Positions 21,446-50,322 of a DNA stretch of 64,000 nucleotides are shown piece by piece. Origin of the DNA: Vicingaceae bacterium (GTDB taxonomy: Bacteria; Bacteroidota; Bacteroidia; Flavobacteriales_E; Vicingaceae); assembly GCA_032251145.1 (NCBI GenBank), contig JAVVER010000001.1, positions 17,629-81,628 of the forward strand, written 5' to 3'. The first letter of the stretch is position 1. The number at the start of each line of letters is the position of its first letter. Under the pieces are notes generated by a model. The model was not told where the DNA came from. It saw only the letters and a program-made list of their open reading frames with translations, and did not search any database. Made by a program: the position numbers and the translations under genes.

Positions 21446-21459
21446 GTTAACCAGTTTTT

Positions 21460-22353: not shown

Positions 22354-22493
22354 TATTAATTAAACGCTGTAAGGTTAAAATTAAAGACTTTTTTATATAA
22401 TTACCAAATATACAATTAGTCGTAAAAACAATAAATCCTTACATATTGTCAGTTTAGCTTTTGGTAATCGTCTTTTAAGGAAACTCATCTAAT

Positions 22494-23249: not shown

Positions 23250-23259
23250 AAACAAAAAA

Positions 23260-24183: not shown

Positions 24184-24215
24184 TCAATACAACTAAATAA
24201 TCAAATAAATAAAAC

Positions 24216-28068: not shown

Positions 28069-30099
28069 ATGAACAAATATTTCGACCGAGAATTAAGTTG
28101 GTTATCATTTAATTACAGGGTTTTACAAGAAGCCATCAATCCTAAAGTTCCACTAATTGAGCGTATTCGGTTTTTGGCAATATTTTCTTCCAATTTAGAT
28201 GAGTTTTATCGGGTTCGTGTAGCGTCTTATATGCATTTGCTTAAATTACAAGAAATTGAAGGTGTGCCTAAAGACGAAAAAGCAAAAAAACTACTCAAAA
28301 AAATTAAAAAGACGGTAAAAAAACAACAGGTTGAATTTGGTCATATTTACAGAAATGAACTCATTCCGCTTTTACAAAAAGAAAATATTTTTATTATTAA
28401 TGATAAAGACGTAACAAAAGAGCAGCAAAAGTTTTTAGCTCCTTATTTTAACGAAAAAATTAAACCCTTTCTTCAAGTAACAGAGTTAGATGCTAGTGCT
28501 ACTACATTTTTAAAAGATAAAGGCTTGTACCTTACTGTTAGTAGCCAGAATGCCCACAACACTTTTTATTTAATTAATTTACCAACCGATAAAACAGAGC
28601 GTTTTATTAAACTACCCACAAACACCAATCAAGAAATTATTATTTTACTTTCTGATGTGATACGTGTTTTTATTAACGAACTTATTCCAAATTTAAAGAA
28701 TCCTAATTGTTTTGCCATTAAATTAAGTAGAGATGCCGAATTGTATTTAGAGGAAGAAATTGCAGAAACCGTAAAAGGAAAAATATTAAACAGCTTAAAC
28801 AAACGAAAAATTGGCGACCCCTCTCGTTTTCTATACGATGAAAGCATGCCCAAGGAAACCCTAAAGGTATTGCGAAAATATTTAGGACTAAAAAAAGATG
28901 AACTGGTTCCTGGTGGTAGATACCATAATTTTAATGATTTTTTTAAACTTCCTATTAAAGGAAATCCTTCACTTTTTTATGACGATTTGCCTACGTTAAA
29001 ACACCATGAATTAGATAATTACCCCTCCATTTTTGAAGCCCTTCAGCAAAAAGAATTTGCATTGCATTTTCCATATCAACAATACGACTATGTGCTCAAT
29101 TTTGTTGAACAAGCCAGTATCGACAATGCGGTGCTTGAAATAAACATTACCCTTTACCGTGTTGCCAAAGAATCTCGAATTTGTAAAGCATTGATTGTAG
29201 CTGCCAAAAATGGAAAAAAAGTTACGGTTTTTAGTGAATTAAAAGCCCGATTTGATGAAGAGTTAAATATGAAATGGGCAAGTGAAATGAAAGCAGCAGG
29301 TGTTAGTGTTATTTATAGTTTTGAGGAGTTGAAAGTACACTCTAAAATTTGTTTAATTAAACGACAAGAAGGTAAAAAAGTAGTGAACTACGCCTATTTT
29401 GGAACAGGTAACTTTAATGAAGATACTTCAAAAATTTATTGCGATCATGCTTTATTAACTTCTGATAGTCAATTAACCAGCGAACTAGGAAATGTTTTTA
29501 GCTTCTTAAAAGGAGAAATTAAACAGCCTACTTTTAATCATTTGCTAGTTGCCCCGTTTAATTTACGCCAAGAGTTTGAACACCTAATAGATGCTGAAAT
29601 TGAACACGTTAAAAACGGAAAAATTGGCAAAATGGTGCTTAAAATGAATAGCTTGGAAGATAAACAAATGATTAAAAAACTATACGAGGCAAGTAATGCA
29701 GGAGTTAAAATAATCATTATTGTAAGAGGTATTTGTTGTTTAATTCCAGGTGTAGATGGCATGAGCAAAAACATTAAAGTAATTAGTATAATTGACCGAT
29801 ATTTAGAGCATGGAAGAATTTATTTGTTTCATAACAATGGCGATGAAAAACTGTATTTGGCTTCGGCAGATTGGATGAAAAGAAACTTAAGTCACAGGGT
29901 AGAAGTGGCTTTTCCTGTTTACAACACAACGCTAAAAAATGAGATAAAGAAATTAATCTCACTTCAACTAAAAGACAATGTAAAAGCAAGAAACCTGAAT
30001 AGAACACAAAGCAATCCTTATAAAAAATCTACATCAACAACCAGCGTGAGAGCTCAATACGATTTTTATGATTATTTAAAGCCCCAATTCCTTTCGTAA
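28069..30099 (+). CDS. ppk1: polyphosphate kinase 1
   Basis: 676 aa. The N-terminus FDRELSWLSFNYRVLQEA and the two PLD-like HxK regions (VHSKICLI, LEHGRIYLF) are typical of PPK1. Confidence 0.95.
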   Translation: MNKYFDRELSWLSFNYRVLQEAINPKVPLIERIRFLAIFSSNLDEFYRVRVASYMHLLKLQEIEGVPKDEKAKKLLKKIKKTVKKQQVEFGHIYRNELIPLLQKENIFIINDKDVTKEQQKFLAPYFNEKIKPFLQVTELDASATTFLKDKGLYLTVSSQNAHNTFYLINLPTDKTERFIKLPTNTNQEIIILLSDVIRVFINELIPNLKNPNCFAIKLSRDAELYLEEEIAETVKGKILNSLNKRKIGDPSRFLYDESMPKETLKVLRKYLGLKKDELVPGGRYHNFNDFFKLPIKGNPSLFYDDLPTLKHHELDNYPSIFEALQQKEFALHFPYQQYDYVLNFVEQASIDNAVLEINITLYRVAKESRICKALIVAAKNGKKVTVFSELKARFDEELNMKWASEMKAAGVSVIYSFEELKVHSKICLIKRQEGKKVVNYAYFGTGNFNEDTSKIYCDHALLTSDSQLTSELGNVFSFLKGEIKQPTFNHLLVAPFNLRQEFEHLIDAEIEHVKNGKIGKMVLKMNSLEDKQMIKKLYEASNAGVKIIIIVRGICCLIPGVDGMSKNIKVISIIDRYLEHGRIYLFHNNGDEKLYLASADWMKRNLSHRVEVAFPVYNTTLKNEIKKLISLQLKDNVKARNLNRTQSNPYKKSTSTTSVRAQYDFYDYLKPQFLS

Positions 30100-30975
30100 C
30101 AAACTGTCTTTTACTGCATTTTTTGTCCAATAAGCATTTTTTAGCGTGTTGATTTTGGTTGCTTTGGTGGTTAATTTTTCGGCTTTATCGCCCCAACCAC
30201 TCACATAAGTTTCTTCCCAACTTTCTATGGCGTAGGGAAATACATTTTGATAATGAATGGTTAGCGTTCTTTCCAGCTCAGGATAATAAATGCTGTAAAT
30301 GGTAAGGTTTTTTTCGATTGCAGTAGAAATTTCTGCACGATAAGCTTTAAGCTCTTTGTGCATTAATCTCACATAAAAAAGAGAAGGAATAAGTTTTGTT
30401 TTTCCTGTTGGCAACATTTCAGGGTTGGTTCTTATTCTCAACCAAATTTCATCTTCCAATACATCATTCGGGATAGAAGAAGTGTTATCGCCTTCACTTT
30501 CAAAATAAGAAAATGAATTAACATTCCATTTATTTTTTCTTTGGTTGAGTTGAGTAAAAGCATGTCCGCACCACTCTTGAGCCGAACTGGTTGCTTTAAT
30601 AAGCGGTTTGCTTAAATCATCAATAGGGAGAAATAAGGAATTCATCATAGAATACGGGTAAATTCCGGTATTGAATTTCTTGGTAAAATTTAGTTTTAAT
30701 ACCAAAAAATCGTTTGGTGTTGGATTATCGGCTTTTACTTGTTTTTCTTTTGAAAACGGTTCGGTAACATAAATTAATACGGCATTTCCCTGTCGGATTT
30801 CTCCGTAACGAGCTTGTTCCAATTTATAGGAAGTAATTTCTGCTTCGTTGTTAAACCAATAGTTGTTAAAAGCGGTTGATGTTTTTTCAATAATTTCAGT
30901 TTGCTTTTCGGGATTAGTAAAGCTACAAGCCGATAACAAGCCTATGATAGTAATAAATTTTAGTGTTGATTTCAT
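30076..30975 (-). CDS. lipoprotein, unknown function (last gene of the giant-OMP operon)
   Basis: Lipobox LLSAC. Its 3' end overlaps ppk1 by 24 nt, convergently. Confidence 0.55.
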   Translation of the reverse strand: MKSTLKFITIIGLLSACSFTNPEKQTEIIEKTSTAFNNYWFNNEAEITSYKLEQARYGEIRQGNAVLIYVTEPFSKEKQVKADNPTPNDFLVLKLNFTKKFNTGIYPYSMMNSLFLPIDDLSKPLIKATSSAQEWCGHAFTQLNQRKNKWNVNSFSYFESEGDNTSSIPNDVLEDEIWLRIRTNPEMLPTGKTKLIPSLFYVRLMHKELKAYRAEISTAIEKNLTIYSIYYPELERTLTIHYQNVFPYAIESWEETYVSGWGDKAEKLTTKATKINTLKNAYWTKNAVKDSLLRKELGL

Positions 30976-30989
30976 AAAAAATGGTTAGA

Positions 30990-31964
30990 TTATATTTTCA
31001 AAATTAAGCCTAAACTTCCGTAATAAAAATGCCTTCCTCTGGTAGTTTCTGCAGTAATTAAATGGTGCCTAAAAAAAGTGGTAAATCTTTTTCTCGAAAA
31101 ATTAATAGCTGCGGAAACATCTACATTTACTCGGTGCATACCTTCTGTATTCATGTTATTATTTTCTCCAAAAAATCGTCCTTGTATGGTTGCTTTGTAG
31201 CCCCAAGTTACCAAATGAGCCCCGAAATCTAAAAAAAATTCACTTTCCGGTGGCGTGTCATTATGTGTTAAGTTGGTATTGTAAAAAAAGGTATTTTCTA
31301 TGCTGTTAAACTTTCCGAAACGCCCCATAAAACCTTGTTTAAAATAAGTAGCTTGCGTTCCCAAACTGGCACTTGTTTGCGAATGAATGTCAAATTTTCC
31401 AAACGATAGTAAAGGAAGATTAAACCCTACTCCAATGTTTGCTGCCACTTCATTTTGCACTTGGTTGTCCCATGCTTCAAACTTGGGATTGTTAATTAAC
31501 ACATGAAAATTATCTTGTAATTTTTCAGCTCCTGAAGCAGGTCCTAAAATGCCAATAGTTAAACTAATAAACGTAAGTGATTTTTGATTAGCGATAGTAA
31601 TTTTATTCTCGGCAAATAACCAACCTGCATACGGTCTGTCAAATTCTACAAAAACACCATTTACTTTTTTATCACGATCTTGGTCGGAGGTGTAGCCTTC
31701 TATTCCTGCATGCCAGTTTACTATTACTTTTTCTAAATTCGGTTTTAGTTTTTTAGCTAATTCAACTATTTTGCTATCATTTTTAGCTAGTTTTCTATAA
31801 TCGAAATGCAATCCAAAAGAGTAATACCTGTCGGCAACTTTTCGTTTAAAAGTTAAAATATCATTGTCTTTTTGAAGCTGAATTTCTTGGTCGTACATTT
31901 TCTTCTGAGCCCACAAATCAGAGCTGAGTAATAAGAGTAAGATGCCAATAAATCTAAATTTCAT
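30990..31964 (-). CDS. LpxR-like (DUF2219) outer-membrane lipid A deacylase family protein
   Basis: Signal peptide, N-terminal DNDILTF...DRYYSFG motif like LpxR family proteins, and a beta-barrel pattern. Confidence 0.5.
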   Translation of the reverse strand: MKFRFIGILLLLLSSDLWAQKKMYDQEIQLQKDNDILTFKRKVADRYYSFGLHFDYRKLAKNDSKIVELAKKLKPNLEKVIVNWHAGIEGYTSDQDRDKKVNGVFVEFDRPYAGWLFAENKITIANQKSLTFISLTIGILGPASGAEKLQDNFHVLINNPKFEAWDNQVQNEVAANIGVGFNLPLLSFGKFDIHSQTSASLGTQATYFKQGFMGRFGKFNSIENTFFYNTNLTHNDTPPESEFFLDFGAHLVTWGYKATIQGRFFGENNNMNTEGMHRVNVDVSAAINFSRKRFTTFFRHHLITAETTRGRHFYYGSLGLILKI

Positions 31965-31983
31965 TTTTTATCTAAATATATAT

Positions 31984-32871
31984 TTACAGTTTCCAATTTA
32001 ATGTTAACCCTGTAGCATTTCCATACCTAAATGGAGCAACAGACAAATTAGATTCTTTGTTTTTCTTTTTATGTAAATGTGGCACTAACCAACCCACAGA
32101 AGCACCAATGGCATAGCCAACAATTACATCGGAAGGAAAATGGTTTCCGGCATCTACCCTAAGATAAGCCATAGCGGCTGGAAGTGTTAAAGCAACTGTC
32201 CAAATTCCAACGCCAACTCCTTTTCTCATGTTAGGATGATAATCATGAATTACCTTAGCCATAAAAACAGAGAAAGCTGCGGTTTGTGCCGTATGTCCCG
32301 AAAAAAAAGATAACCTGCTGTTAGATGCTGTTCTAGCATCAAAAGAAAATTTGTCGCTATAAACTAATGGTCGGGTTCTGTTAAAGGTATATTTTGCATT
32401 CATGGTTAGCCCAGATGTTATGGCAAATACTTCAACTGCCATTATTCCAAGTCGTCCAATATCTTTTCCAGTGTGGTGATTGCTAAAAAAGAATAGAGGT
32501 AAGGCTAATTCCGAATAGAGTAAAATATCACTTAGTTTTTTAGAGCTTTTATCATCATTGTAAATAGCAACTCTGTCAAAACGATTTACTTCATCAGGAT
32601 TTAATTGGTTCAGCTCATTAAGAGTAAAAGCTGATTTTCCGTTATATTCTCTTAAAATTAACCCAGAACTAAGTAAACCTATACCAGCAACAAAAAATGG
32701 AATTTCTTTTTTAAAATTTATCTCATAAGGCGATTCGTTGGTGTGTTCGCCATTGACGCAATAGTTACAAATATGACCTGTTTTATTCAAGTTTACATCC
32801 TGAGCTTTTAGCTGACTAAAAAGCGTTAAAATAGACGTAAGTGTTAAAATTATTTTTTTAATTCTATACAT
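31984..32871 (-). CDS. PAP2 family lipid phosphatase
   Basis: KYTFNRTRP, SGHTA and RVDAGNHFPSDV match KxxxxxxRP / SGH / SRxxxxxHxxxD. The track start at 32907 lies inside a repeat, so I prefer ATG at 32871 (MYRIKKIILTL signal peptide). Confidence 0.8.
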   Translation of the reverse strand: MYRIKKIILTLTSILTLFSQLKAQDVNLNKTGHICNYCVNGEHTNESPYEINFKKEIPFFVAGIGLLSSGLILREYNGKSAFTLNELNQLNPDEVNRFDRVAIYNDDKSSKKLSDILLYSELALPLFFFSNHHTGKDIGRLGIMAVEVFAITSGLTMNAKYTFNRTRPLVYSDKFSFDARTASNSRLSFFSGHTAQTAAFSVFMAKVIHDYHPNMRKGVGVGIWTVALTLPAAMAYLRVDAGNHFPSDVIVGYAIGASVGWLVPHLHKKKNKESNLSVAPFRYGNATGLTLNWKL

Positions 32872-32893
32872 AGTTATTATAGTTTTACTATTT

Positions 32894-32970
32894 CTTTTTC
32901 CTACCATTTAGGCATTAAGATTATTAAGGTTTGTTTTTAATGGTTCTTAATTTCTTAATGGTTATTTAAT
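32894..32970 (-). repeat. TTAAG/CTTAA triple-palindrome intergenic repeat, copy R4
   Basis: The reverse complement aligns with 46604-46680 along its length. The right half AACCTTAATAATCTTAATGCCTAAATGG is almost identical. Confidence 0.8.
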
Positions 32971-35900
32971 TTAAAACAAAAATCCCATTTTAAGTATAAA
33001 TAAATTTTCTTCTGACGAAACAGCGTAAGAAGCATTAATTACCAACATATCAAAAGGACTCATCCAAACACCGCCACCAACACTGTTGTGCCATTTGGTT
33101 GATGTATCGTTGCTTGTCCAAACTCTACCTAAATCAAAAAAACCAAGTACGCCCAATTGACCAGGAAATAAATACGATTTAAAATTGGTGAGTTTTATGC
33201 GTAAATCCTGATTAAAAGTTAAACTACTTCTTCCCGAAAAGCGATCTCTTCTAAACCCTCTTAAATCGCCATTACGGTGGTTCCTGTTTTGAGCCCCAAT
33301 GGTTGCTGCTTGAAAAAATTCAAATTTATCCACCAAATGAACGCCTTTTACATTGGAAGAAAAAACCACATTTTTTCCGAAAGGCAAATACATGGCAAAT
33401 TGCGACTCTAACCTTCCAAAATGTAAACTTGCATTTTCTGCTTCTCTTTCCCAACTTCCGCTAACATGAAAATTAATTCCTCGTGTAGGGATTACTTTAC
33501 TATCGGTATTATTGAAAGAATATTGTAATTCCATGCCTAAATAATTTCGTGCTGAAAGGCTGCTTACATAATTGGAAGCTAAATCGCTTGTTATAAATCT
33601 ATCTTCAGACGCCTCTACATCAATGTGTTGGTATTTTGGTCCAAATTTAATTTCATTAAATTTCCCTACATTATGCACCAACATTGGTTGAAATTTAATT
33701 TCGTTAAATCGCACTAAGTGAAATGAGTTGTCTTCGCCATTTACTACTTGAGTTTCGTTACCTAAACCATAAAAATTAGTGGTACTATTGGGGGCGTTTA
33801 CAGACGCATCAATATCTAAGTCTAATTTTTTAATTAAATCAACAAATTTTCCATCATATTCAATATTAAAGCTATTGGTCTTCAACGCTCTATTGGCAAC
33901 AAACCGATTAAAATGAGCATAAGGTTTTTTTCTAAATCCGTGTTTGGTAATGGCAACTCCACCACCTAAAAACAAGCCATCATCAATATTATAACCTACA
34001 AATAATTGTGGAATAAGCATATCGTATTTAAACTCTTTCCTGTCGTATTCGTTAATCATTTTTTGATGCGAAACCAAGTTTTTTAATTCGTTGTTTTTTT
34101 CGCAAACTACTATGTTTTCTTCTTTTTTAGTATCATAATATTTTGTTTTTTTACGAAGTCCTTTTACGTTAGAAATGTCGGTAATTTCATCGTTGCCTTC
34201 TCCGCCAATTATTCGCACTAAAATTCCTTTGTTCACTTCTCCTTCTATGGTAAAAACATCTTTTCCGCCCAAGCCATAAATGCGTATTTCTTTGGTTTCA
34301 AAACGATTAAAATCTCTGCTGTAATACAAACTGCCTTTTTCTCCTTTTTTTAGGTGATATACTTTTACAGAAGTGATGGTATCATTTACTCTAACAATTT
34401 CAAATTTTTCAGCTTTATTACTTCCCACCACATTTACGTGTTTTGCCAGTACATAATAATATCTTTCGGCAAATTCTTGTAATTTATCTCTTCTCGAAAG
34501 CAATTTTGCAGTAATTTCTTCGCCATCAAGTTTATAAATGGTATCGGGCCAGAGTTTAATGGCATTAATAATCACACTATCGGTTAAGTTTTGTTGCATT
34601 TCGGCAGCCAAATCAAGCCATTCTTGTTTGTCTAACCGAGTTAAAAATGAACGGTCGATGTATCTTCCATTAAAATTCATCCCACTAATATCACGAATAT
34701 CGTAATCGAAATGCTGGAGTTTCCGAACCACCCATTTTCTTCCTGCCAAACGAGGAATTAAGCCATCAAACTTTACAAAAGCTTGGTCTCTATCTCTCGG
34801 AATTGGAATGTAGTATTTGTTGTTATCAATTAAATGGCTGCAATGCTCATGGTTTTCTTTTGCACAAGTATATTCAGCCCAACGCCATTGGTCTTCGTGC
34901 CTGTCCCAATCGCCAATAAGCATATCAAACAAACGATTTCGGAGCATTTCTTCCTCATCAACAACAAAATTATGATCATCTAACACCTTATGAATTAATT
35001 TTTGAGAATTGATGGCATTGGTGGTGTAACCAAAGTTTCCGGTTGAAGAAACATCTTTGGCAGCACGTTGCTCAAACAACATGAGTTGGTTGGCAAAATC
35101 TTCACGATATTCCAACAAGTGAGGGTCGTTTGGCACAGCAACTAGCTGTGGTTTAGAATGTAAAATACCCACTGCTTCTGCCATTGGCGGAATAACAAAA
35201 GCACTGTAAGGATGAGCAGTAGAAATTTGATCTTGCACCACTTCGGCAGCTGCGGTATTTCTTAATTCTTCGGGCAATGCTGCTGATGGGTCTTTTTGTA
35301 TGGATCGAAAAACATATTCGTTGCCATTTTCGGCTTTTAATCGGAGCGATTTAGTTTGTTGTCCGCCACCTCGCTGAATTGGTGTTAAACCTCCATAGGT
35401 ATTATGAATGTCAATTGTTGGCACTTCAACAGGAGTTTGCCATGCTTTTCGGTAATGTTCGCCCAGCAAAAACTTTTTCATAAAACTTGCTTCATAGTTT
35501 TCACCTGGGATTAATGTCATTGTTTTTGGAATACTTAATGTATCGGTAATATCAACATCTTCTTTACTTTCTTTTTGCTTTGCTTCAACCAAAATTTTGC
35601 TAAAAATAAGTTCCGATTTTTCGTTGGAAATTTGCCACGTTTCCATTAAAACAGCACCAGAATTAAGTACAATTAATTTAAAAAAACCTTTTTCTTCGGC
35701 AGAAAAATCAGGTGTTTTTAGTTGCTTAACGGGTGTTGTTTTACTTCCCGAACCACTTACAATATAATGGTGGTTTTGTTGTTCTGTTTTATCAAAATAT
35801 TGCAAATTATGTTCATGCCCGGCAGCATAAATCAGGTTTGGATGAAATTTAAAAACGTGCTGCAGTTCGCTAATCATTTCTTGGTATTCGGCATGGTTTA

Positions 35901-36699: not shown

Positions 36700-36772
36700 G
36701 GTTTCAAGTTATTTTAAGTTTCTTCATTTTATAATTTATTCGCTTAATTCGTTCTCAAAAGACTGAACTAAT

Positions 36773-36883
36773 ATGTTAGAGTTCGAGGCTTTCGTAGTTT
36801 TGGAAATCAGGAGTTTACTTTCGTAAATGACTGGTTTTCAAAACAAGAATAACGAAGAAATCGGACATATTAGACAGTCTCTA
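36773..36883. repeat. 111-nt intergenic repeat, copy B
   Basis: 98/111 identical to 248-358. Hairpin arms are 36797-36818 and 36823-36844. The last 3 nt are the stop codon of paralog 2. Confidence 0.8.
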
Positions 36884-39800
36884 ATTAAAAGATTTTCCGA
36901 GACTAAACAATACAAAAACATTTTCTTCGTCAGAATGAGCTACCGATAAATTAAAAGTAAACTGTTCGTCTAAAAATCCCCAATAAATTCCACCACCGTA
37001 GGCACTGTGCCATTTGTTGGACAAATCTAAATCATCATAAATTCTACCGGTATCAAAAAAAGCTTTTATTCCCATTTTCATGGGTAAAAATGAAGTGGTA
37101 AAGTTAGCCAATTGTATGCGTAGTTCATTGTTTAAAAACAGGGTAGATTTCCCTGTAAATCTGTTTCTTCTAAACCCTCGCAAATTGTTGTTGCTACCCA
37201 AAAAAACCATATTGTAAAAAGGAATGTTTCCTTCGCTTATGGAACCTCCAGCTTTTGTGGCTAAAGTGATGGGAGATGGAATTCTTGCAGTTAAATAATG
37301 TTCTATAAATCCTTTAAAAATGTGGTAATCGGTTTTTTCGGAAACTACTTGTCCGTTTTGGTATTCGCTAACCAGTCGAACTCCCGACTCTGGAAGGTTA
37401 GAACGGTCTCTAAAATCTAAATCTAATCCTGCGGTGCTAACAATAATATCATTTCCTCTTGTTCCAAAAATGAGTGAAGAACTGTTTTCATCGGTTGCAG
37501 TAAAAAGTGTATTATCAGAAATTTGTGCAGAGTTGTACTCGTATTGAGTGGAGATATAAAAACTGCTTTTTTTACGAAAATCTCTAATTAAACCAAGGTG
37601 TGCCGAATAAGTGTTGTAAGTGGTTTTGTAATAATCAGCCGCACTCAAACTATCATCCTTTACCGTGTTGTTTCCTAAACCATAAAAGCTAGTTAGTTTG
37701 TTGTGGTTAGCTACTAACCCACCAACATTTACATCCCATTTGTGTAATACATGTCGGAACCTGCTGCTGTATTCAAAAATATTATTTTGTTCGGTGCTTA
37801 CTTCTAAATTAAATTTGTGCTTGGTAGAATAATCGGTGTTTTTGTAGTTTTCCCGTTGAGTAAAAACAACTCCTACACTAGTTCCAAAGCCATTGTCGGC
37901 ATTGTAGTTAAGCGAAAACAAAGGTAAATACCTGTTGTATTTAAATTTGGTGGGTTGGAAATCGTATAAATCTTCATTCCAAGTATTTATTTGCTTTGCT
38001 TCTGTTCCTAAAAACGAGTTTTCGTTAGTAGATTTCTCATAAACATAGGTTTGTTTACCAAGTGTTTTTACAGAAGAGCTATCCAAAATAACATCATCAC
38101 CTTTTCCGCCAACAATAATGATGGGTATGGATTTTTTCGCTTTACCTTTTAGCACAAAAATATCTTTACTGCCTAATCCATAAAGTCTAATTTCTTTGGT
38201 TTCTGATGGAAAAAATGTACGATGATAAAGTTGTTTCGTGCCTTTATGATGATTATCAACATCAAATATCCCAACATCAACCGTACCTGACGGATTTCTA
38301 GTAATTTCAAAAAATTCTTTTTCGTTCGTTCCAACAACATCTACTTGTTTGGCTAAAAGAAGATAATATTCTTCGGCATATTTATCCAAATCTTTTATTC
38401 TACTTTTTAATTTTTCGGCTATGGTTTTTCCCGATAGTTCATAAATTTCTTTGGGCAATGTTTGAGCAGCAATATCAATTAAACTATCGTTTAGCGAATG
38501 TTGAATGTAATCGCTTGCTTCCAGCCAATCTTTTCGGGTCATTTCGTTGGTTAACAACCTATCTTGTGGGGTTGCTACAAACATCAAACTTTTAACATCA
38601 TTAATTTTATATCCAAAATTTTCTCCTGCTTCTAGTATCCATTTTCTATCTAACAACCAAGGAATTATTCCATCCCATTGAACAAAAACTAGATCTCTAT
38701 CTCTTGGAATTGGTCGATAAAAAACGCCTGTATCGGTTTTGTAACCTGCCCATTTCCAATTGTCTTGATGTTTACCATGGTCGCCCACCAAAATATCAAA
38801 AACCCTGGCTTTGGTATATTCTTTTGCATCAATTTTATGATTTTGCTTGTCGTAGCGTTTTTTGTTTAACTCATGACTTTGGAGCAAGTAATCAGCATTA
38901 GCGAAAGCATTTTTTATCTTTTTAGGATTTTTTTGGTGATCTTCTAACGTACCTAACATTCCGCTATATTTATTGTAAATACCCAATTTAGGATGAGAAG
39001 GCAATACAAAAAGCTCAGGCTGAGCATGCAAAATAGAAGTGTTATCTAATAGTTTGCTTACAATTAATCCTCCGTAAGGATGCTGCATAGAAACATTATC
39101 TTGCAATTGGCGAGCTAATAAGGAGTGTTTTAGTTCGGCACTTAATCCTCTGGTAGCATCTTTATTTACCGAACGAAAAGTATAAGCAAAACCATCATTT
39201 CCAATCATTTTTACAGAAGTGGTTTGGTGTCCGCCACCTCTGTCGTAAGCAACTAATCCGTTTTTGGTGGTATCCATGTTTAAAATGGGCACTTCAACAA
39301 AAGTATTCCAACTTTTACGGTAATGTGTTCCTATAATAAACTTTCTAAAACGAGAGGCGTCATAATTTCCTGCATTAACTAAAGCTACATCTTCATTTTC
39401 AGGAAAATAAGTAGAAGACACATCTTTTAAACAACTTTTGTTGGCATAGTTTTCAGGAATGTCGTTTTTGCTCGAATCTAAAAGCGATTTGTAAAGCATT
39501 ACGCTTTTATCTAGCTCAAATTTTTCGTTTGTATAGTGGTAATTATGACTAACCACCGAGCCATCAATATTGTAATTTACTTTAGTGATGCTTGGTTTAG
39601 AAGTAGAATAAACGGCAAACCTTGTTTTTCTACCTTTTTTAGATGATTCTGGTAAACCGTTATTGATAAAATAGTTGTCAAAATCCTTAATTATTTGCGT
39701 GTTGTATTCGTGTGCCGAAAAATAAATTACCCCACTTTTTACCGACATCCTATTTAAAATTTTTTCTCTTATGGGATTAAAATGGGAGTTAATGATGTCT

Positions 39801-40525
39801 TTTTTTCCTCCAATATTTTGATGGTAATAGGTTTTAAAACTTCCATAAACAGGTGGAAATAAATGATTTGTAAAAGGCAGGTTTCCTTGTTCTACTAAAG
39901 GGAAATGCCCGGCTATAATTAAGTTTTTATCTTCGGTTTCTGCCAAGGCATTTTCTATCTCAATAATAAAATCTTTGGGGGTGTTTATATCGCAATTGGC
40001 ATTTACTACTTCTGGTTTTTTATAAGGATGATTCCACCATTGGGTATTGATTACCATCAACAACAAATTACTATCTAGCTCAATAAGTTCTGGACCGGGA
40101 CAACCCTTATCCAACACCCATTTAATGTTTTTAAATCCTTTGTATTCAACTAAATTTTCTAAGTATTTCACTTTTTTAATTCCTTTTTTACCCGAGTTAT
40201 CCCAATCTCTATCGCCAGCAACAACAATGGTTTGTGTGTTTGGAATTCCAGACAATTCGTTCAAAAAATTATACAACGGTAAGGAATCATTTTTTAAAAA
40301 TGCTGAACCATTTTTTTTGATTAAATCGCCATTTAAGATTAAAAGGGCAGGTAATTTTTCTTGAGCAATCAATGTTTTTAAAGCTGCTGCATAAGTAGGT
40401 TTATTTTTAATATCAACCACATTACCGATATTAATTACCTGATAATAAGGAACAACTTCAGTACTTTGCGAAAAAATACTTTTAGCAAAAAGGGATAGCA
40501 GCAATATTATAAAAAGTTGTTTCAT
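36881..40525 (-). CDS. giant OM protein, paralog 2: degenerate metallophosphoesterase + DRHxDNW-like module + Omp85-type barrel
   Basis: Same layout as paralog 3, but with motifs GDRDW, GHFP, AHEY and GDHGKHQDNWKW. The track start at 40543 lies inside a repeat, so I prefer ATG at 40525 (MKQLFIILLLSLF signal peptide). Confidence 0.75.
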   Translation of the reverse strand: MKQLFIILLLSLFAKSIFSQSTEVVPYYQVINIGNVVDIKNKPTYAAALKTLIAQEKLPALLILNGDLIKKNGSAFLKNDSLPLYNFLNELSGIPNTQTIVVAGDRDWDNSGKKGIKKVKYLENLVEYKGFKNIKWVLDKGCPGPELIELDSNLLLMVINTQWWNHPYKKPEVVNANCDINTPKDFIIEIENALAETEDKNLIIAGHFPLVEQGNLPFTNHLFPPVYGSFKTYYHQNIGGKKDIINSHFNPIREKILNRMSVKSGVIYFSAHEYNTQIIKDFDNYFINNGLPESSKKGRKTRFAVYSTSKPSITKVNYNIDGSVVSHNYHYTNEKFELDKSVMLYKSLLDSSKNDIPENYANKSCLKDVSSTYFPENEDVALVNAGNYDASRFRKFIIGTHYRKSWNTFVEVPILNMDTTKNGLVAYDRGGGHQTTSVKMIGNDGFAYTFRSVNKDATRGLSAELKHSLLARQLQDNVSMQHPYGGLIVSKLLDNTSILHAQPELFVLPSHPKLGIYNKYSGMLGTLEDHQKNPKKIKNAFANADYLLQSHELNKKRYDKQNHKIDAKEYTKARVFDILVGDHGKHQDNWKWAGYKTDTGVFYRPIPRDRDLVFVQWDGIIPWLLDRKWILEAGENFGYKINDVKSLMFVATPQDRLLTNEMTRKDWLEASDYIQHSLNDSLIDIAAQTLPKEIYELSGKTIAEKLKSRIKDLDKYAEEYYLLLAKQVDVVGTNEKEFFEITRNPSGTVDVGIFDVDNHHKGTKQLYHRTFFPSETKEIRLYGLGSKDIFVLKGKAKKSIPIIIVGGKGDDVILDSSSVKTLGKQTYVYEKSTNENSFLGTEAKQINTWNEDLYDFQPTKFKYNRYLPLFSLNYNADNGFGTSVGVVFTQRENYKNTDYSTKHKFNLEVSTEQNNIFEYSSRFRHVLHKWDVNVGGLVANHNKLTSFYGLGNNTVKDDSLSAADYYKTTYNTYSAHLGLIRDFRKKSSFYISTQYEYNSAQISDNTLFTATDENSSSLIFGTRGNDIIVSTAGLDLDFRDRSNLPESGVRLVSEYQNGQVVSEKTDYHIFKGFIEHYLTARIPSPITLATKAGGSISEGNIPFYNMVFLGSNNNLRGFRRNRFTGKSTLFLNNELRIQLANFTTSFLPMKMGIKAFFDTGRIYDDLDLSNKWHSAYGGGIYWGFLDEQFTFNLSVAHSDEENVFVLFSLGKSFN

Positions 40526-40530
40526 TATTT

Positions 40531-40680
40531 GTTTTTCTATCATTAAGGCATTAAGGTTATTAAGTGTTTGTTCTTAATGTTTCTTAACTTCTTAATGGTT
40601 TAATTATTTGTTTACTATTTTTTTCCACCATTAAGGCATTAAGTTTATTAAGGTTTTTTTCTTAATTCGTAATTCTCAAA
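40531..40680 (-). repeat. two tandem copies (R5, R6) of the TTAAG/CTTAA intergenic repeat
   Basis: 40531-40613 and about 40614-40680. Both contain CATTAAGGCATTAAG(G/T)TTATTAAGG, the reverse complement of the conserved right half. Confidence 0.75.
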
Positions 40681-40688
40681 TCGTACAT

Positions 40689-43600
40689 TTATATGATTAA
40701 TCCCAGTCCAATTTTTAAGAAAGCCTTTTGCTCATCAGAATATTCTACATTAACTTGTATGGTTATGTAATCTTTACTGATGGGTGTTAAATAAATTCCT
40801 CCGCCATAACCGTTGTGCCATTTTTTTTCTGTGAAGCTTTCATTTTCAACTATCTGACCAACATCTAAAAACGCATTTAAGCCGTAATACATAGGCAAAA
40901 AGCTCGATTTACTTTTTCCTAAATGGAAACGCAAATCGGTATTAACATAGTTGGTTGCCTCACCCGAAAACCGATTTTGTAAATATCCACGCAAGTGATA
41001 CGATTGCCCTATGCTGGCTAAATGATAAAAAGGAATGTTTTTGCCAAAAGTTCTTTCTGTTCCAGCTTTAACACCGAGTGTAATAGGAATAACAATGCGT
41101 GTAGTACTGTAATAACTAATTTCTGCACTTGTTTTGCCAAATGCTTTAGACGTTGTAAAAAGCGATTTATTTTCTAAAGTAACCCGAATACCTTTAGTGG
41201 TAAAGCTTGGGCTATCTCTAAAATCGAGGTCGAATTTTATTTCTCCACCTGTAGCATTGGTTGGTTCTAATTGTGGATTAGGAAACACATCAAAAAACGA
41301 TTGGTCGGAATGTCCTTTACTCAATAATTCGCTAACTGCATTAAGGGATATAAAGCTTCTTCGTAAAAAACGATAGGTAATTCCTCCCTTTAAAATAGCA
41401 CCTTGATACCTGGCTTTGTAATACCCTGCATCTTCCAGCGAATCTACTAAAACGGTTTTGTTGCCTACGCCATAAAAACTATAAAAAGGAAAGAAAGCAC
41501 CTAACTCAGCATTTCCGTTGAGGTAAAAATCGGAGTTACCAATATTTCTTTCAGTTTGCAAGGAAAAATAATTACTTCCGCCTGTGGTAGAAAATAGCTT
41601 CACATCGTGCAAGGTTTTGTATAATTTGTTGGCATAGCCAAAGCGTTTCATTTGCAAATTTATTCCACCACCAAAACCATCGTCAGGGTTTACTACTAAT
41701 AATGGAATTGGCAAGTAAGTATTGTATTTAAATGCGTCTTGATCAAATTCGTTTAACCTACTTTTTTCAGATAAAATGGTTCGAGTTTCTTTGCTTTTTT
41801 CGGTAAGCACATTGTTAGGATAATCGTAAATTAATGTTTTTTTAGTACCAAAACGCACGTTGGATTCGTCAATTACATTGTCATTACCATCGCCTCCCAT
41901 AATTCTTACTAAAATACTCTTGTTGCTTGTTCCATATACATAAAAACTATCGGCTTTAGCTAACCCAAACAAACGAATTTCTTTGGTTTCGTTAGGATAA
42001 AAAGTTCTGTTTAATAACACATTAGAAGTATCTTCTTTAGCGTACATACTCACTTCAACAGCTCCTGAAGGTAACCGATTTATCTTAAAAAACTCTGCTT
42101 TATTGGTGCCAACAATGTCAACTTCTTTAGAAAGTAACAAGTAATGTTTTTCTACAGCTTTATTTAATTCTGTTTTTCGTTTCTTCAATTTTTCGGCAAT
42201 TTCTTTTCCCGATTTTTCTTGCAGCGGCTCAGGAAAAGCAAGTTTGGCATCATCAATAACTTCGTCAGTAATTTGTGCATTAATGGTTTTAGCAGCTTTT
42301 AGCCAAGCTTGTTTATCCATACCCGATAAAAGCAGCCTATCTAAATGAGAACCTTTAATGGTTAAGCTTTTTATGCCAGTAAAGTGGTTGTTAAAATTTT
42401 CCCGAAAAGGAATTGCCCAATCTCTATCAGCCAAATAATAAAAGAAGCCATTCATTCTTGAAAAAGCGTGGTCTCTATCTTTCGGGTAAGGTTTGTAGGT
42501 GGTAATGCCTTGTTCGTTTTTATAGCCTATCCATTTCCAATTGTCTTGATGCCTGTCCCAATCGCCAATTAAAATATCAACAACTCTGGCTTCGGCATAT
42601 TGCATGGTATCAATATTGGTTTTTGGCGATTTATAAATTTTTTGAAGTAAACTCAAACTGCTTTTCACTTGGTCGGCTTGTTGGTAGCTTTTTGTTATAT
42701 CGTCTAATTCGGTAGGTTTGGGTTCTAACATTCCATACATTCCCGAAAACTGACTTCTAAAATCACCTAATTTTTCTGAGTCGGGCATAATGTAAAGTTT
42801 AGGAGTACCGTGATAAAGATTGGTTGCGTCTAGCAACTTTGCAACAAACAATGCACCGTATGGATGTTGAGTGGCAGTCATATCTTGCATAATGTTTGCC
42901 ACTAAATCAATCCGCAATTCAAAAGGAATGGCTTTTATGGGGGTTTTGTCGATAGAACGGAAAGCATATTTTCTTCCATCTTTATCAACAAATTGAAGCG
43001 AAATGGTTTGTAAACCACCTCCTTTTTTTAGAGGAGTAAGTCCGCCAAAGGTGGTGTCTAAATCAAGTGTTGGAATAGTTACGGGTGTTGTCCACGCATC
43101 GCGATATAAAGAACCGAAAAAAAGTTGTTTAAATTTTGATGCTTTGTAATCTCCTGCAACAATACTGTCGTTGGTAAAGTGTTTTAATTCGGCATTAGAT
43201 TTTATTTTATTTTTAAAAATATGTGTTTTCTTTTTACTTTCCAGCACAACACTTTTTGCTAACTCAAAGTTGTTTTCTTTTTTATCTAACACAAAAAACT
43301 TACTTACAATTGGCGTATTTTTTTGAATTTCTAACTTAACAAAACCAGTATTGTTGGTTTTAAAAATGGTGTTTTCTAAAGCACTAACTTGAGCACTTTT
43401 TACCAAGTTTCCTGAAATGATTTGATAGTTATAGTTCAAATTTAGCAACTGCATATCGTATTCGTGAGCCGAGCACATCACTACATTTTCGTGTTTTAAT
43501 AATACATCTTTAATTTCTTTGATGTAAAGCTGATATTGGTCGTTGCTTAAATCTTGAACAGAACCTATATTTTGACGATAGCAATGATAAAACGTACCAT

Positions 43601-44336
43601 ATAAAGGAATGAAAGTTTTATTATCAGGGTCGCTATGCGAAAACGGGAAAAATTGCCCCATAAAATTGGAGTTGCCACCATAAACTCCACCCGAAGTAAC
43701 GGGATGATGTGTTATAAAAATTACCTTTCTGTTTCCAGCATTTTCTATAGCAGCATCTAGTTCGTCTAAAATTTCAATTTTTAAAATCTCTTTACATTCA
43801 GAATCTATAGGAAGCACTTTTCGGTAAGGGTGTAGCCACCACTGAGAGTTAATGGCAATTATTCTAATATCATCTCCAATATCTTTTACATAAGGTCCTG
43901 GACAATCATTTTTTGGAAAAAAGATATTTTCGCCAAGTAGTTTTTTATAGGATTTCTGTAACGAACTTACTGTGTCTAAACCGTAATAACCAGAATTATC
44001 CCAATCTAAATCTCCAGTAACGGCTATGATTTCTGCCCCTTTTTCTTTTACTTTTTTAAGAAAATCGGATAGTATTTTGGTGTTTTCGGGCAAATCTTGA
44101 CGAACATCTCCTAAAAGCAGTAGTGTGAAAGGTTTTCCGTTTTGTTCTTGATGTAAAAAGCCTTCAAATTGTGTTAATCTTTCGGGGAGTTTAGTTCCAT
44201 TAAGATTACCTAAAACATAAATGTTGTTTTGAGCAATAACCAAATTTATAGATAGTATTAATACTACAAAGCTTAGTAAAAAGTGATGCAATTTATGAAT
44301 TACATTAATATTAATTTTGAAAGCAGAATTCTTCAT
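40689..44336 (-). CDS. giant OM protein, paralog 1: degenerate metallophosphoesterase + DRHxDNW module + Omp85-type barrel
   Basis: 1215 aa with a signal peptide. GDLDW, THHP, AHEY. LIGDWDRHQDNWKW and PKDRDHAF. C-terminus RGYLQNRFSG ... GGGIYL. Its ATG overlaps the stop of the upstream PAP2_3 gene (TAATG). Confidence 0.75.
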   Translation of the reverse strand: MKNSAFKININVIHKLHHFLLSFVVLILSINLVIAQNNIYVLGNLNGTKLPERLTQFEGFLHQEQNGKPFTLLLLGDVRQDLPENTKILSDFLKKVKEKGAEIIAVTGDLDWDNSGYYGLDTVSSLQKSYKKLLGENIFFPKNDCPGPYVKDIGDDIRIIAINSQWWLHPYRKVLPIDSECKEILKIEILDELDAAIENAGNRKVIFITHHPVTSGGVYGGNSNFMGQFFPFSHSDPDNKTFIPLYGTFYHCYRQNIGSVQDLSNDQYQLYIKEIKDVLLKHENVVMCSAHEYDMQLLNLNYNYQIISGNLVKSAQVSALENTIFKTNNTGFVKLEIQKNTPIVSKFFVLDKKENNFELAKSVVLESKKKTHIFKNKIKSNAELKHFTNDSIVAGDYKASKFKQLFFGSLYRDAWTTPVTIPTLDLDTTFGGLTPLKKGGGLQTISLQFVDKDGRKYAFRSIDKTPIKAIPFELRIDLVANIMQDMTATQHPYGALFVAKLLDATNLYHGTPKLYIMPDSEKLGDFRSQFSGMYGMLEPKPTELDDITKSYQQADQVKSSLSLLQKIYKSPKTNIDTMQYAEARVVDILIGDWDRHQDNWKWIGYKNEQGITTYKPYPKDRDHAFSRMNGFFYYLADRDWAIPFRENFNNHFTGIKSLTIKGSHLDRLLLSGMDKQAWLKAAKTINAQITDEVIDDAKLAFPEPLQEKSGKEIAEKLKKRKTELNKAVEKHYLLLSKEVDIVGTNKAEFFKINRLPSGAVEVSMYAKEDTSNVLLNRTFYPNETKEIRLFGLAKADSFYVYGTSNKSILVRIMGGDGNDNVIDESNVRFGTKKTLIYDYPNNVLTEKSKETRTILSEKSRLNEFDQDAFKYNTYLPIPLLVVNPDDGFGGGINLQMKRFGYANKLYKTLHDVKLFSTTGGSNYFSLQTERNIGNSDFYLNGNAELGAFFPFYSFYGVGNKTVLVDSLEDAGYYKARYQGAILKGGITYRFLRRSFISLNAVSELLSKGHSDQSFFDVFPNPQLEPTNATGGEIKFDLDFRDSPSFTTKGIRVTLENKSLFTTSKAFGKTSAEISYYSTTRIVIPITLGVKAGTERTFGKNIPFYHLASIGQSYHLRGYLQNRFSGEATNYVNTDLRFHLGKSKSSFLPMYYGLNAFLDVGQIVENESFTEKKWHNGYGGGIYLTPISKDYITIQVNVEYSDEQKAFLKIGLGLII

Positions 44337-45133
44337 TAGGATATTTTTCTTAACCCGAGTTTGCTTGAATTTACAAGCTGTAAATTTATCACTTTAACTT
44401 TCTTAGCTAGGTATAAAAAAGGATATGGTAAGAGCACTACAATTCCTCCTACAATAGCATCCATAAAAAAATGATTGCCGGTAACAACTATTACCAAAAG
44501 CACAAATATAGGGTAAAGGAGCAACAACCAAGTAGTAATTTTATTTTTAGTTAAAAAAGCAACAACAACACCAATAAGCAAAGCATTTCCAAAGTGCATG
44601 GATGGTACTGCGGCATATTGATTAAATAATCCAGAAAAAACACCCGAATAAAGATTTACATCACTTATTTTAAGTAAGGTATCGGTAAAACCAATATCAT
44701 TCAACATTCTGGGAGGGGCACACGGAAAATTAACATAAAAATACAAGGTAAGTGTATTGGCTAGTAAAAAGCCATTTCTCACAAATTTATAGTGAGTCTT
44801 TTTTTGATGATACAGCCAAACGAAAAAAGCTATAGTAATCGGTAAATGAGCTGTTACGTAAAATTTATTTAATATGGTTACTAATAAATGAGAATTAAGA
44901 AAATATTGTTGAATATCAATTTCATAAAAGATGCCTAACATCATTTCAATGTCCACTAAAAAATGAGCATTATGAAAAGCAGTTTGCTCATCACCAATGG
45001 CAAAATACCTAGATATTTTATAAAAGACCAAAAACAATAAAAAAATTAGTAACTCCTTTAATCCTTTATTTTTCAAAGATAAATACAAATATTTTGAATA
45101 GAATTCGTTGATGGTTTGATGTGAAAAAGTCAT
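44336..45133 (-). CDS. PAP2_3 (Aur1/inositol-phosphorylceramide synthase-like) membrane phospho-headgroup transferase
   Basis: AAVPSMHFG and TGNHFFMDAIVGG motifs, polytopic. The track start at 45316 would overlap the divergent gene at 45254, so I prefer ATG at 45133 (MTFSHQ). Confidence 0.65.
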   Translation of the reverse strand: MTFSHQTINEFYSKYLYLSLKNKGLKELLIFLLFLVFYKISRYFAIGDEQTAFHNAHFLVDIEMMLGIFYEIDIQQYFLNSHLLVTILNKFYVTAHLPITIAFFVWLYHQKKTHYKFVRNGFLLANTLTLYFYVNFPCAPPRMLNDIGFTDTLLKISDVNLYSGVFSGLFNQYAAVPSMHFGNALLIGVVVAFLTKNKITTWLLLLYPIFVLLVIVVTGNHFFMDAIVGGIVVLLPYPFLYLAKKVKVINLQLVNSSKLGLRKIS

Positions 45134-45253
45134 ATTAAATGCAAATAAATTTTTGAAAAGATAGACGATTGAAAATACTTTCCTGACATTAAAATCAAAT
45201 TTTGTAAGGTTTTCCGCTTTATTGCGACTAATTTTGGGAAACAAATTTTTTCT

Positions 45254-46603: not shown

Positions 46604-46680
46604 AGAAACAAATCATTAAGAAATTAAGGAACATTAAGAATTAAAACCTTAATAATCTTAATGCCTTAATGGTAAAAAAG
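46604..46680 (+). repeat. TTAAG/CTTAA triple-palindrome intergenic repeat, copy R2
   Basis: Starts directly after the stop codon, as R1 does (TAAAGAAACAAA). Three ATTAAG units are mirrored by three CTTAAT units. Confidence 0.85.
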
Positions 46681-46688
46681 AAAAATTA

Positions 46689-47093
46689 ATGACAAAAAAA
46701 GAAGTAACACAATTATCTTATGAAATAATAGGTTGTGCAATAACCGTTCATAAAGAACTTGGTCCAGGGTTATTAGAAAGTGTATATGAACAATGTTTGA
46801 AATATGAATTAATTAAAAATGGATATAAAGTAACGCAGCAATTAATCGTTCCAGTAATTTATAATGAACTCGAAATGGAGGTTAATTTAAGAGTTGATTT
46901 ATTAGTTAATGATGTTGTTGTTATAGAATTAAAAGCAGTAGAAAATATTCTTCCTGTTCATGAAGCTCAATTATTAACCTATATGAAATTATTAAAAAAA
47001 CCTCAGGGGTTATTAATAAATTTTTACACTGATAATATTGCAAAATCTAAAAAACCATTTGTTAATGAGTATTTTTCTCAATTGCCTGATTAA
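46689..47093 (+). CDS. GxxExxY family protein (PD-(D/E)xK nuclease-like fold)
   Basis: 134 aa with GPGLLESVYEQCL (GxxExxY) and a later DLLV...IELK block. Confidence 0.75.
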   Translation: MTKKEVTQLSYEIIGCAITVHKELGPGLLESVYEQCLKYELIKNGYKVTQQLIVPVIYNELEMEVNLRVDLLVNDVVVIELKAVENILPVHEAQLLTYMKLLKKPQGLLINFYTDNIAKSKKPFVNEYFSQLPD

Positions 47094-47097: not shown

Positions 47098-47244
47098 AGA
47101 AAACCATTGAGAAATTAAGAAAAATTAAGAGCTAAAACCTTAATAATCTTAATGCCTTAATGGTGAAAAAAGATGATAAATTGAAACCTTTTATAAAGTA
47201 AGAACAATAACCTTAATCAACTTAATTCCTTAATGGTAAAAAAA
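47098..47244 (+). repeat. TTAAG/CTTAA repeat copy R3 (47098-47172) plus right-half copy R3b (47209-47244)
   Basis: The R3 right half AAAACCTTAATAATCTTAATGCCTTAATGGT is identical to R2. R3b is AACCTTAATCAACTTAATTCCTTAATGGTAAAAAAA. Confidence 0.8.
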
Positions 47245-48233: not shown

Positions 48234-48237
48234 TATA

Positions 48238-50314: not shown

Positions 50315-50322
50315 AAACGTAA

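Follow-up and report, generated by a model that had tools for sequence, protein, structure and literature searches.

What are three consecutive genes for outer-membrane proteins of about 1,200 residues, each with enzyme-like domains in front of an Omp85 barrel, doing in the envelope of a marine flavobacterium? The genes, here called paralogs A, B and C, lie in a 64,000-nucleotide stretch of contig JAVVER010000001.1 from a member of the Vicingaceae (the window; all positions are counted from its first nucleotide), within a run of seven co-directional minus-strand open reading frames (ORFs) at 30076..45316. A first-pass annotation, made by a model from the sequence letters, had read each of them as a fusion of a phosphoesterase, a kinase-like module and an Omp85 barrel. 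Profile and structure searches confirmed this three-part architecture, and ORF calls and reading of the sequence reproduced the layout and strand of the genes, the TAATG overlap at the head of paralog A and the motifs that had been quoted. We use the label MKO (metallophosphoesterase, kinase-fold, Omp85), coined here, for what is an enzyme-bearing Omp85 family, so far uncharacterised. Omp85 proteins are viewed almost only as protein insertases or translocases. With moderate confidence, we favor the explanation that MKO proteins would instead carry out phosphoryl transfer and phosphate-ester hydrolysis on an envelope substrate, working with an inner-membrane protein referred to below as HD-PycTM. 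The three paralogs and their domains, including the purple acid phosphatase (PAP) region, are as follows.

40689..44336, minus strand: paralog A, 1215 residues, with signal peptide, altered-site PAP-like domain, kinase-fold module, all-beta domain and Omp85 barrel
43242..44231, minus strand: PAP-like (GAP50-like) domain of A, residues 36-365, from the motif table and the Foldseek match to GAP50 (3tgh)
42129..43175, minus strand: predicted protein-kinase-like module of A, residues ~388-736, from DSSP of the full-length model
41772..42125, minus strand: all-beta linker domain of A, residues ~738-855, with a GGxGxD motif, placed by the model at the POTRA position
40692..41720, minus strand: 16-strand Omp85 barrel of A, residues ~873-1215, from the full-length model and Foldseek
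36881..40543, minus strand: paralog B, 1220 residues (1214 from an inner ATG), layout as in A, Pfam ShlB at 1.6e-7
32971..36699, minus strand: paralog C, 1242 residues from a TTG start, the canonical member, with the full PAP ligand set and the full kinase-fold motif set
35590..36633, minus strand: PAP-type metallophosphoesterase domain of C, residues ~23-370, motifs GDAG, GDNVY, GNHD, GHH and GHEH
34435..35532, minus strand: predicted protein-kinase-like module of C, residues 390-755, from an AlphaFold2 model and Foldseek
32974..34017, minus strand: Omp85 barrel of C, residues ~895-1242, ending in GFLF, Pfam Omp85 at 3e-12

An AlphaFold2 model of full-length mature A, with a predicted local distance difference test score (pLDDT) of 81.7 and a predicted template modelling score (pTM) of 0.75, consists of five parts: a PAP-like domain, a disordered linker, a kinase fold, an all-beta domain and 16 long barrel strands. 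In Foldseek searches the barrel of A matched Sam50, TamA and BamA with E values down to 4.9e-9 and a template modelling score (TM-score) of 0.76 against the TamA barrel, and the C-terminal third of the proteins matched Fusobacterium nucleatum BamA (9ccg) at 3e-11 when a 61-member family profile was searched against the PDB. NCBIfam Omp85_fam is matched by A, B and C, and all three carry the signal peptides and the motifs RG[FY]..[ND]RF.G and GGG[IV][YW] that had been read from the sequence. The RG[FY] of loop 6 (L6) sits between strands 11 and 12; R1147, G1148, D1189 and G1191, which belong to this motif and to the FxDxG motif of strand 13, are invariant across the family.

The segment in front of the barrel of A is modelled as 11 strands and zero helices with a pLDDT of ~90, an all-beta structure that rules out its being a POTRA. 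A profile search of this domain against the PDB found no POTRA, returning only an uninformative match to YncM (E = 0.02). A described 'noNterm' subfamily of Omp85 proteins is likewise without POTRA domains (PMC4104836). The signal peptides, together with an invariant cysteine pair (C149/C185) within the phosphatase domain, fit an exported protein. Because of Omp85 topology and the precedent of PlpD, an Omp85 protein that dimerizes and has a periplasmic enzyme domain (PMC11116518), the N-terminal domains of MKO proteins would be periplasmic and tethered to the outer membrane.

The PlpD example suggests that an Omp85 scaffold can be put to a second use, that of anchoring envelope enzymes, and the resemblance extends to the overall plan. 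Like PlpD and FplA (formerly 'type Vd autotransporters'), MKO proteins join an N-terminal enzyme domain and a C-terminal 16-strand Omp85 barrel in one polypeptide. The enzyme of PlpD and FplA is a patatin lipase, whereas MKO proteins have a PAP phosphatase and a kinase fold, and Pfam Patatin has no match in A, B or C. PlpD also has a POTRA where MKO proteins have the all-beta domain, and it is about half their length. With BamA, TamA and Sam50 the family shares the barrel fold, the L6 RG[FY] and FxDxG motifs and a C-terminal aromatic residue; unlike them, it has large enzyme-like N-terminal domains and lacks both POTRA domains and neighbors of the BAM or TamB type. MKO proteins would form a second, much larger enzyme-bearing Omp85 class after PlpD, with different chemistry.

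The identity of the central module needed structure prediction, since sequence searches all stayed below threshold. Searches with phmmer and hmmsearch against the PDB and Pfam gave sub-threshold matches alone, including CtkA at E = 0.078 (GNFDRHNGNW against GDWDRHxDQW) and PI3_PI4_kinase, in paralog A only, at E = 0.016 and 15.6 bits against a cut-off of 27.1. Pfam HipA_C has no match among A, B and C, and the 61-member family profile found nothing in the PDB for the middle third. For a reading as a defence system, PADLOC offered only weak matches to PDC-M03A, which fall on the kinase loop (E ~1e-4). Residues 390-755 of C, modelled by AlphaFold2 from a 33-sequence alignment, gave a pLDDT of 90.7 and a pTM of 0.90, and the Foldseek search of this model against the PDB returned CtkA (3.6e-6; TM-scores 0.43/0.55), PI4KII-alpha (2e-4) and CotH (2.5e-4), with weaker matches to Rio2, HipA/HipT and COQ8. 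All nine matches with E <= 0.001 were kinases, and nearly all of the 50 listed had the kinase fold. The predicted structure confirms the central module as an atypical protein-kinase-like bilobal fold, nearest to CtkA/HipA, PI4KII-alpha and CotH.

A catalytic loop of the form G-[ND]-[FW]-D-R-H-x-x-N-W, as read from the CtkA alignment, and a metal-binding Asp further downstream are shared by the module with CtkA/HipA and the type II PI4 kinases. Those kinases are cytoplasmic or injected and use ATP, whereas the MKO module lies behind a signal peptide and would be tethered to the outer membrane. In 114 representatives covering both architectures of the family (pairwise identity at most 50%), the GGG loop, R465, K469, E543, D592, D597, D599-R-H, Q/N604 and D636-R-D638 are essentially invariant, and this conservation of catalytic-type residues argues for a working active site. 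The catalytic loop itself is intact in A (DRHQDN), has Gln for Asn in C (DRHEDQ) and has lost the catalytic Asp in B (GKHQDN, with the substitutions D599G and R600K). The domain is unmodelled in Pfam and NCBIfam, which leaves an annotation gap.

In addition to the kinase fold, the long MKO proteins carry a phosphatase domain at the N terminus. The N-terminal third matched mammalian PAP/TRAP and GAP50 at ~4e-9 to 4e-8 with the 61-member family profile, and the model of A matched GAP50 (3tgh) with E 4.6e-7 and a TM-score of 0.63, both of which support a calcineurin-like alpha/beta sandwich; paralog C also matches Pfam Metallophos at 1.7e-7. Paralog C has all five PAP motifs, the Tyr ligand among them, and all seven metal ligands (D37, D70, Y73, N112, H214, H295 and H297) as well as the catalytic H113, and these eight site residues are 99-100% conserved in 120 orthologs of C. 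The PAP domain of C is complete and is predicted to hydrolyze phosphate esters. Five of the eight residues, four of them metal ligands, are replaced in A and B (in C numbering, D37N, loss of Y73, N112D, H113L in A and H113L/R over A and B, and H297Y; pattern ND-D[LR]HHY). All three ligands of the Fe(III) site are gone from these two paralogs, with the M(II)-site residues retained, so that the seven-ligand set of a PAP is present in C only. The metallophosphoesterase block assigned to each paralog in the first-pass annotation therefore stands at the level of the fold, and an intact site is found in C alone.

The remodelled site of A probably performs no hydrolysis. GAP50 is a PAP-fold protein without metal ligands that serves as a membrane anchor, and it would be a precedent for A and B as pseudo-phosphatases. 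PAPs are otherwise soluble stand-alone enzymes, unlike the MKO phosphatase, which is an optional N-terminal module of a 1,200-residue outer-membrane protein. The Riemerella 'MPPE' metallophosphoesterase was considered as a characterized relative and ruled out, being an effector secreted by the type IX secretion system with another architecture.

The paralogs are as deeply diverged as first supposed, with full-length identities of 34% for A/B and 30% for both A/C and B/C, and relatives have the A-B-C tandem as well. A protein from a Vicingaceae metagenome-assembled genome matches A at 100% identity. Among 231 homologs, three combinations of phosphatase and kinase-loop residues could be recognized: C-type (DDYNHHHH with DRHxDQ), A-type (ND-D[LRHK]HHY with DRHxDN) and B-type (ND-D[RK]HH[YK] with G[RK]HxDN). 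In a neighbor-joining tree, A and B fall inside a clade of 59 altered-site proteins with zero C-type members. Because the altered patterns recur and form a clade of their own, and are not random lesions, A and B belong to an ancient and conserved subfamily whose members are probably pseudo-phosphatases; for B, loss of kinase activity is probable as well, making it a likely pseudo-kinase. Judged by its residues, C is the catalytically complete member. With the phosphatase site remodelled in A and both sites altered in B, these two are probably regulatory, scaffolding or substrate-binding partners of C. The triplet amounts to a natural mutational series (complete, phosphatase remodelled, both sites remodelled) that should be useful for studying the evolution of pseudo-enzymes.

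Copy number and arrangement of the paralogs differ by lineage, with single genes, tandem doubles, tandem triples and divergent pairs. Locus L021 has two family genes ~7 kb apart on the same strand, L090 has two tandem copies, and L083-L084 have a divergent 1201-residue paralog upstream of C.

How widespread is this design? An exhaustive hidden Markov model search with the kinase-fold module gave 3,136 clusters at 50% identity, 1,611 of them at E <= 1e-30. Two architectures were found, the ~1,200-residue form and a form of 857-886 residues with the module beginning near residue 40; these short, phosphatase-less proteins have a signal or lipoprotein signal peptide and end in the barrel. As the short form keeps both, kinase fold and barrel are, by sequence, the invariant core of the family, and the phosphatase is an add-on. 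A word-indexed search found more than 4,000 C-type proteins, named in databases only as 'BamA/TamA family outer membrane protein' or 'metallophosphoesterase'. Family members are encoded in at least 588 reference species, from the Cytophagales, Chitinophagales, Flavobacteriales, Sphingobacteriales, Bacteroidales, Saprospirales, Rhodothermales and Chlorobiota. The suggestion that no characterized protein has this three-part fusion agrees with database searches and with the literature, where we found no description of it, although an account in a subscription journal could have escaped us; a 2014 Omp85 survey and a 2026 preprint on kinase-fold discovery do not mention the fusion.

The other genes of the locus are the following.

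44336..45133, minus strand: PAP2_3 (Aur1-like) membrane phosphotransferase, Pfam PF14378 at 2e-36
31984..32907, minus strand: PAP2 phosphatase, directly 3' of C, Pfam at 5e-19
30990..31964, minus strand: LpxR-like outer-membrane protein, Pfam at 5e-41, Salmonella LpxR (3fid) at 5e-4
30076..30975, minus strand: 299-residue lipoprotein without family assignment, lipobox LLSAC
28069..30099, plus strand: polyphosphate kinase PPK1, convergent with the cluster, four PPK domains in Pfam
26891..27958, minus strand: DUF2652 protein, Pfam at 5e-45
25743..26894, plus strand: HD-PycTM inner-membrane protein, Pfam HD and PycTM

The PAP2, LpxR-like and lipoprotein genes thus follow on the same strand, as had been reported, and the lipoprotein has no Pfam match. 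The mechanical ORF of PAP2_3 spans 44336..45316; because this longer frame runs into a divergent oxidoreductase gene, we place the likely start at the ATG at 45133, giving 265 residues with the motifs AAVPSMHFG and GNHFFMDAIVGG. Its stop codon overlaps the ATG of paralog A in the TAATG. Downstream of A the intergenic gaps measure 145 bp (A-B), 181 bp (B-C), 63 bp (C-PAP2), 19 bp (PAP2-LpxR) and 14 bp (LpxR-lipoprotein). A scan for sigma-70 promoters and terminators found fewer sites than in shuffled sequence and none within the gaps, and the Bacteroidota -7 motif TAnnTTTG occurs in none of them. A dispersed hairpin repeat of ~55 nt has copies directly downstream of A and of C. Since the gaps hold no terminator-like site or -7 motif and yet hairpin repeats are present, co-transcription of the cluster is plausible, perhaps punctuated. 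A 105-residue ORF antisense within paralog B, at 40047-40364 on the plus strand, is most likely spurious.

To see which neighbors belong to the family as a whole, we surveyed 10-kb flanks of family genes in 80 reference genomes, clustering the neighbors from mechanical ORF calls; the counts are uncorrected for kinship. HD-PycTM is the most conserved genomic partner. It was found near the family gene at 66 of the 80 loci and adjoins it at 59 of 79, either directly or with only c298 between them and usually in divergent orientation; at L096 it lies 2 bp upstream of a phosphatase-less variant. The label c298 stands for SdiA-regulated/phytase-like proteins of ~298 residues (PF06977) that occur beside family genes in other genomes (40/80), sharing the strand of the family gene and lying directly ahead of it, mostly at distances of -4 to +20 bp. 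PPK1 is present at 32 loci, in at least five orders and in several orientations, and DUF2652 at nine, as well as in close relatives. Other recurrent neighbors are a DUF6268 barrel, a SixA-like phosphatase, a membrane class III cyclase and a YeeD-like protein of ~800 residues. Homologs of c298, DUF6268, the YeeD-like and the SixA-like proteins were not found in the window, and no TpsA- or TamB-like partner is conserved near family genes at the 80 loci. PAP2 was seen at eight loci, and PAP2_3, LpxR and the 299-residue lipoprotein at none of the 80. The setting of the family is dominated by phosphate and polyphosphate genes (PPK1, SixA-like, phytase-like propeller), not by lipid genes.

HD-PycTM combines a cytoplasmic, signal-less N-terminal HD domain with three C-terminal transmembrane segments, as placed by a transmembrane scan. 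Its membrane module matches the 2TM effectors of Pycsar and CBASS systems (PADLOC PycTM, 1.6e-18), but the N-terminal domain is HD and not a cyclic nucleotide-binding domain as in Pycsar effectors. A Pycsar system pairs its effector with a pyrimidine cyclase gene; a cyclase-like gene (class III cyclase or DUF2652) stands directly beside HD-PycTM at only 13 of 66 loci. Unlike mobile defence islands, HD-PycTM has a chromosomal position that is fixed across the Bacteroidota, and it could be a housekeeping relative of Pycsar-type effectors.

Closer relatives keep the local gene order. Orthologs of C (85-92% identity) are followed by PAP2, a 147-residue gene, LpxR, in L083-L085 a 304-residue gene, DUF2652 and HD-PycTM. 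The 304-residue gene is homologous to the 299-residue lipoprotein, and its position is shared in L083-L085, where the contig extends far enough. Relatives with A orthologs at 67-78% identity to the A of the window keep the order A-B-C-PAP2; in L093 this order is followed by a Crp-family gene and then LpxR, and in L092 the contig ends at PAP2. Only the nearest relative, L091, has PAP2_3 upstream of A, and other genes take this place in L093 and L086-L090. In L081-L090, L092 and L093, PAP2 comes next after the family gene or, in a tandem, after its last gene, and in this directly downstream position it is limited to the flavobacterial clade; LpxR is limited to family-level relatives. More distant A-type genes (54-62% identity) occur as single or double copies before PAP2, a convergent PPK1, DUF2652, HD-PycTM and YeeD, and PPK1 is also near the family gene in L086-L090. 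Recruitment of PAP2 and LpxR to the locus is confined to this clade, and the substrate here may be a lipid phosphate.

Taken with the folds and conserved residues, this linkage suggests how an MKO protein might work. The 16-strand Omp85 barrel at the C terminus would anchor the protein in the outer membrane, and the ~800 N-terminal residues would hang into the periplasm from barrel strand 1. The kinase-fold domain would be the invariant core, to which the long form adds a PAP domain in front. At the inner face of the outer membrane, such a protein would most likely transfer phosphoryl groups to, and hydrolyze phosphate esters on, an envelope substrate. From gene linkage, it would probably cooperate with HD-PycTM, with its cytoplasmic HD phosphohydrolase and PycTM membrane module, and be connected to polyphosphate or phosphate metabolism. 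Models, alignments and genomes show the folds, the conserved residues, the hallmarks of Omp85, the signals for export and the linkage of the genes. The periplasmic orientation, the catalysis, a joint action with HD-PycTM, what A and B each do and the nature of the substrate are all inferred.

Several points weigh against this proposal. We know of no ATP pool in the periplasm, so that a kinase there would have no obvious phosphoryl donor, and C-type proteins have Gln where kinases place a metal-binding Asn. TM-scores against known kinases are moderate (0.43-0.55), and sequence matches to kinase families fall short of curated thresholds. The functional links all come from gene neighborhood; many partner genes are transcribed divergently or convergently, and kinship among the 80 genomes inflates the neighbor counts. 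In the window itself HD-PycTM is ~6 kb from C and not adjacent, and the immediate co-directional neighbors are lipid-related (PAP2_3, PAP2, LpxR), which fits a lipid role for this lineage. The N-terminal domains could also be exposed at the cell surface instead. A conserved kinase-fold site in a supposedly ATP-free compartment raises the question of which phosphoryl donor it uses, or whether the fold serves some other function. A bolder version, which we regard as quite unlikely, would answer this with a phosphoryl-transfer system across the envelope of which MKO proteins form the outer-membrane half. There, an active exported kinase-fold enzyme would use a non-canonical donor, either polyphosphate from PPK1 or nucleotides released or processed by HD-PycTM, whose membrane module is related to the pore-forming effectors of Pycsar and CBASS. 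The kinase fold would add phosphate to an envelope component and the PAP domain would remove it, and hetero-oligomers with A and B would regulate C. The pairing with HD-PycTM and the linkage to PPK1 offer genetic entry points in tractable soil and marine Bacteroidota.

The first-pass annotation had favored a different role, in which the three proteins, with PAP2_3, PAP2 and LpxR, would form a dedicated outer-membrane machine for remodelling or exporting the head groups of phospholipids, sphingolipids or lipid A. In that case the kinase fold would be a PI4KII-like lipid kinase and the PAP domain a lipid phosphate phosphatase. The window itself lends this some weight. PAP2_3 is translationally coupled to A; PAP2, LpxR and the lipoprotein trail C at gaps of 63, 19 and 14 bp; and PAP2 is directly downstream in all clade relatives with sequence beyond the tandem, besides the eight distant genomes. 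The top fold matches include the membrane lipid kinase PI4KII-alpha, and the inner leaflet of the outer membrane is where the domains would lie. The lipid-phosphate setting proved to be lineage-specific and not general, however, with PAP2_3, LpxR and the lipoprotein missing from all 80 distant loci, PAP2_3 upstream only in the nearest relative, and HD-PycTM, c298 and PPK1, which are not lipid enzymes, as the family-wide partners. Lipid A is in the outer leaflet, remote from periplasmic domains, and the best fold match, CtkA, is a protein kinase, so that the fold favors no lipid kinase over protein kinases. As lipid genes are absent or rare at distant loci where other partners are conserved, a lipid-remodelling machine is only partly supported; it survives as an unlikely, lineage-specific possibility and does not explain the family as a whole.

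PAP-type enzymes are typically secreted phosphate scavengers, which would suit a type V-like self-exporter whose surface-displayed PAP domain scavenges phosphate from organophosphates, to be stored as polyphosphate via PPK1. Linkage to PPK1 and to the phytase-like/SdiA-regulated protein agrees with this idea, FhaC and other Omp85 members do translocate proteins, and extracellular ATP would solve the donor problem. Nevertheless, we consider surface display rather improbable, because the prototype, PlpD, keeps its enzyme domain in the periplasm (PMC11116518) and passage of ~800 folded residues through a 16-strand barrel would be unprecedented without an extended, TpsA-like substrate. The phosphatase is also dispensable, as the phosphatase-less forms and the altered sites of A and B indicate, and scavenging leaves the invariant kinase fold unexplained. 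It is very improbable, in our view, that MKO proteins are primarily BamA/TamA-like insertases or translocases of a partner protein with regulatory or vestigial enzyme-like domains. They keep the L6 RG[FY] and beta-13 FxDxG motifs of active Omp85 proteins, and the barrel is structurally near those of TamA, BamA and Sam50, but POTRA domains are absent, no TpsA- or TamB-like partner is conserved nearby, and the strongest constraint falls on the catalytic-type residues of the kinase fold and on the PAP ligands, which would not be expected of vestigial domains. An enzyme-bearing Omp85 protein acting on an envelope substrate together with HD-PycTM remains the best explanation.

Some other features of the window are worth recording. 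The hairpin repeat mentioned above is ~55-60 nt long and built of TTAAG/CTTAA units in a three-tier hairpin, with a folding free energy of -8.5 to -20 kcal/mol and z-scores of about -3 to -7. Copies are at 12704-12765, 46612-46670, 47103-47165 and 47212-47230 on the plus strand and at 32910-32962 and 40546-40599 on the minus strand, with a half copy at 40634-40652 (minus). Each lies just 3' of a stop codon, oriented with the upstream gene and without a U-tract. Zero copies are expected by chance, and no Rfam family matches the repeat, which could be an element resembling repetitive extragenic palindromes that marks transcript ends or processing sites. Direct copies flank a 134-residue gene of the PD-(D/E)XK type (PDDEXK_3) at 46689-47093 on the plus strand. 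This gene is missing at the matching position in the nearest relative, L091, where only 54 bp separate the oxidoreductase gene from DUF547, and it looks like a small insertion cassette.

Beyond it, a plus-strand run at 47256-53846 encodes a DUF547 protein, a 530-residue membrane protein with an Fer4 cluster, a 168-residue ORF, two GT2 glycosyltransferases and a GT87-like membrane protein. Its first five genes, from DUF547 to the second GT2, stand in the same order beside PAP2_3 in L091, and the run looks like an uncharacterized envelope glycan or lipid cluster. On the other side of the locus, 20426-25721 holds genes for a GH113 glycoside hydrolase, an alpha/beta hydrolase, a patatin-like phospholipase and a protein with a glutamate-synthase domain; in the relatives L083-L084 and L093, the gene for this fourth protein also adjoins HD-PycTM or paralog A. 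A tRNA gene at 3009-3081 (plus strand) is the sole Rfam match in the window.

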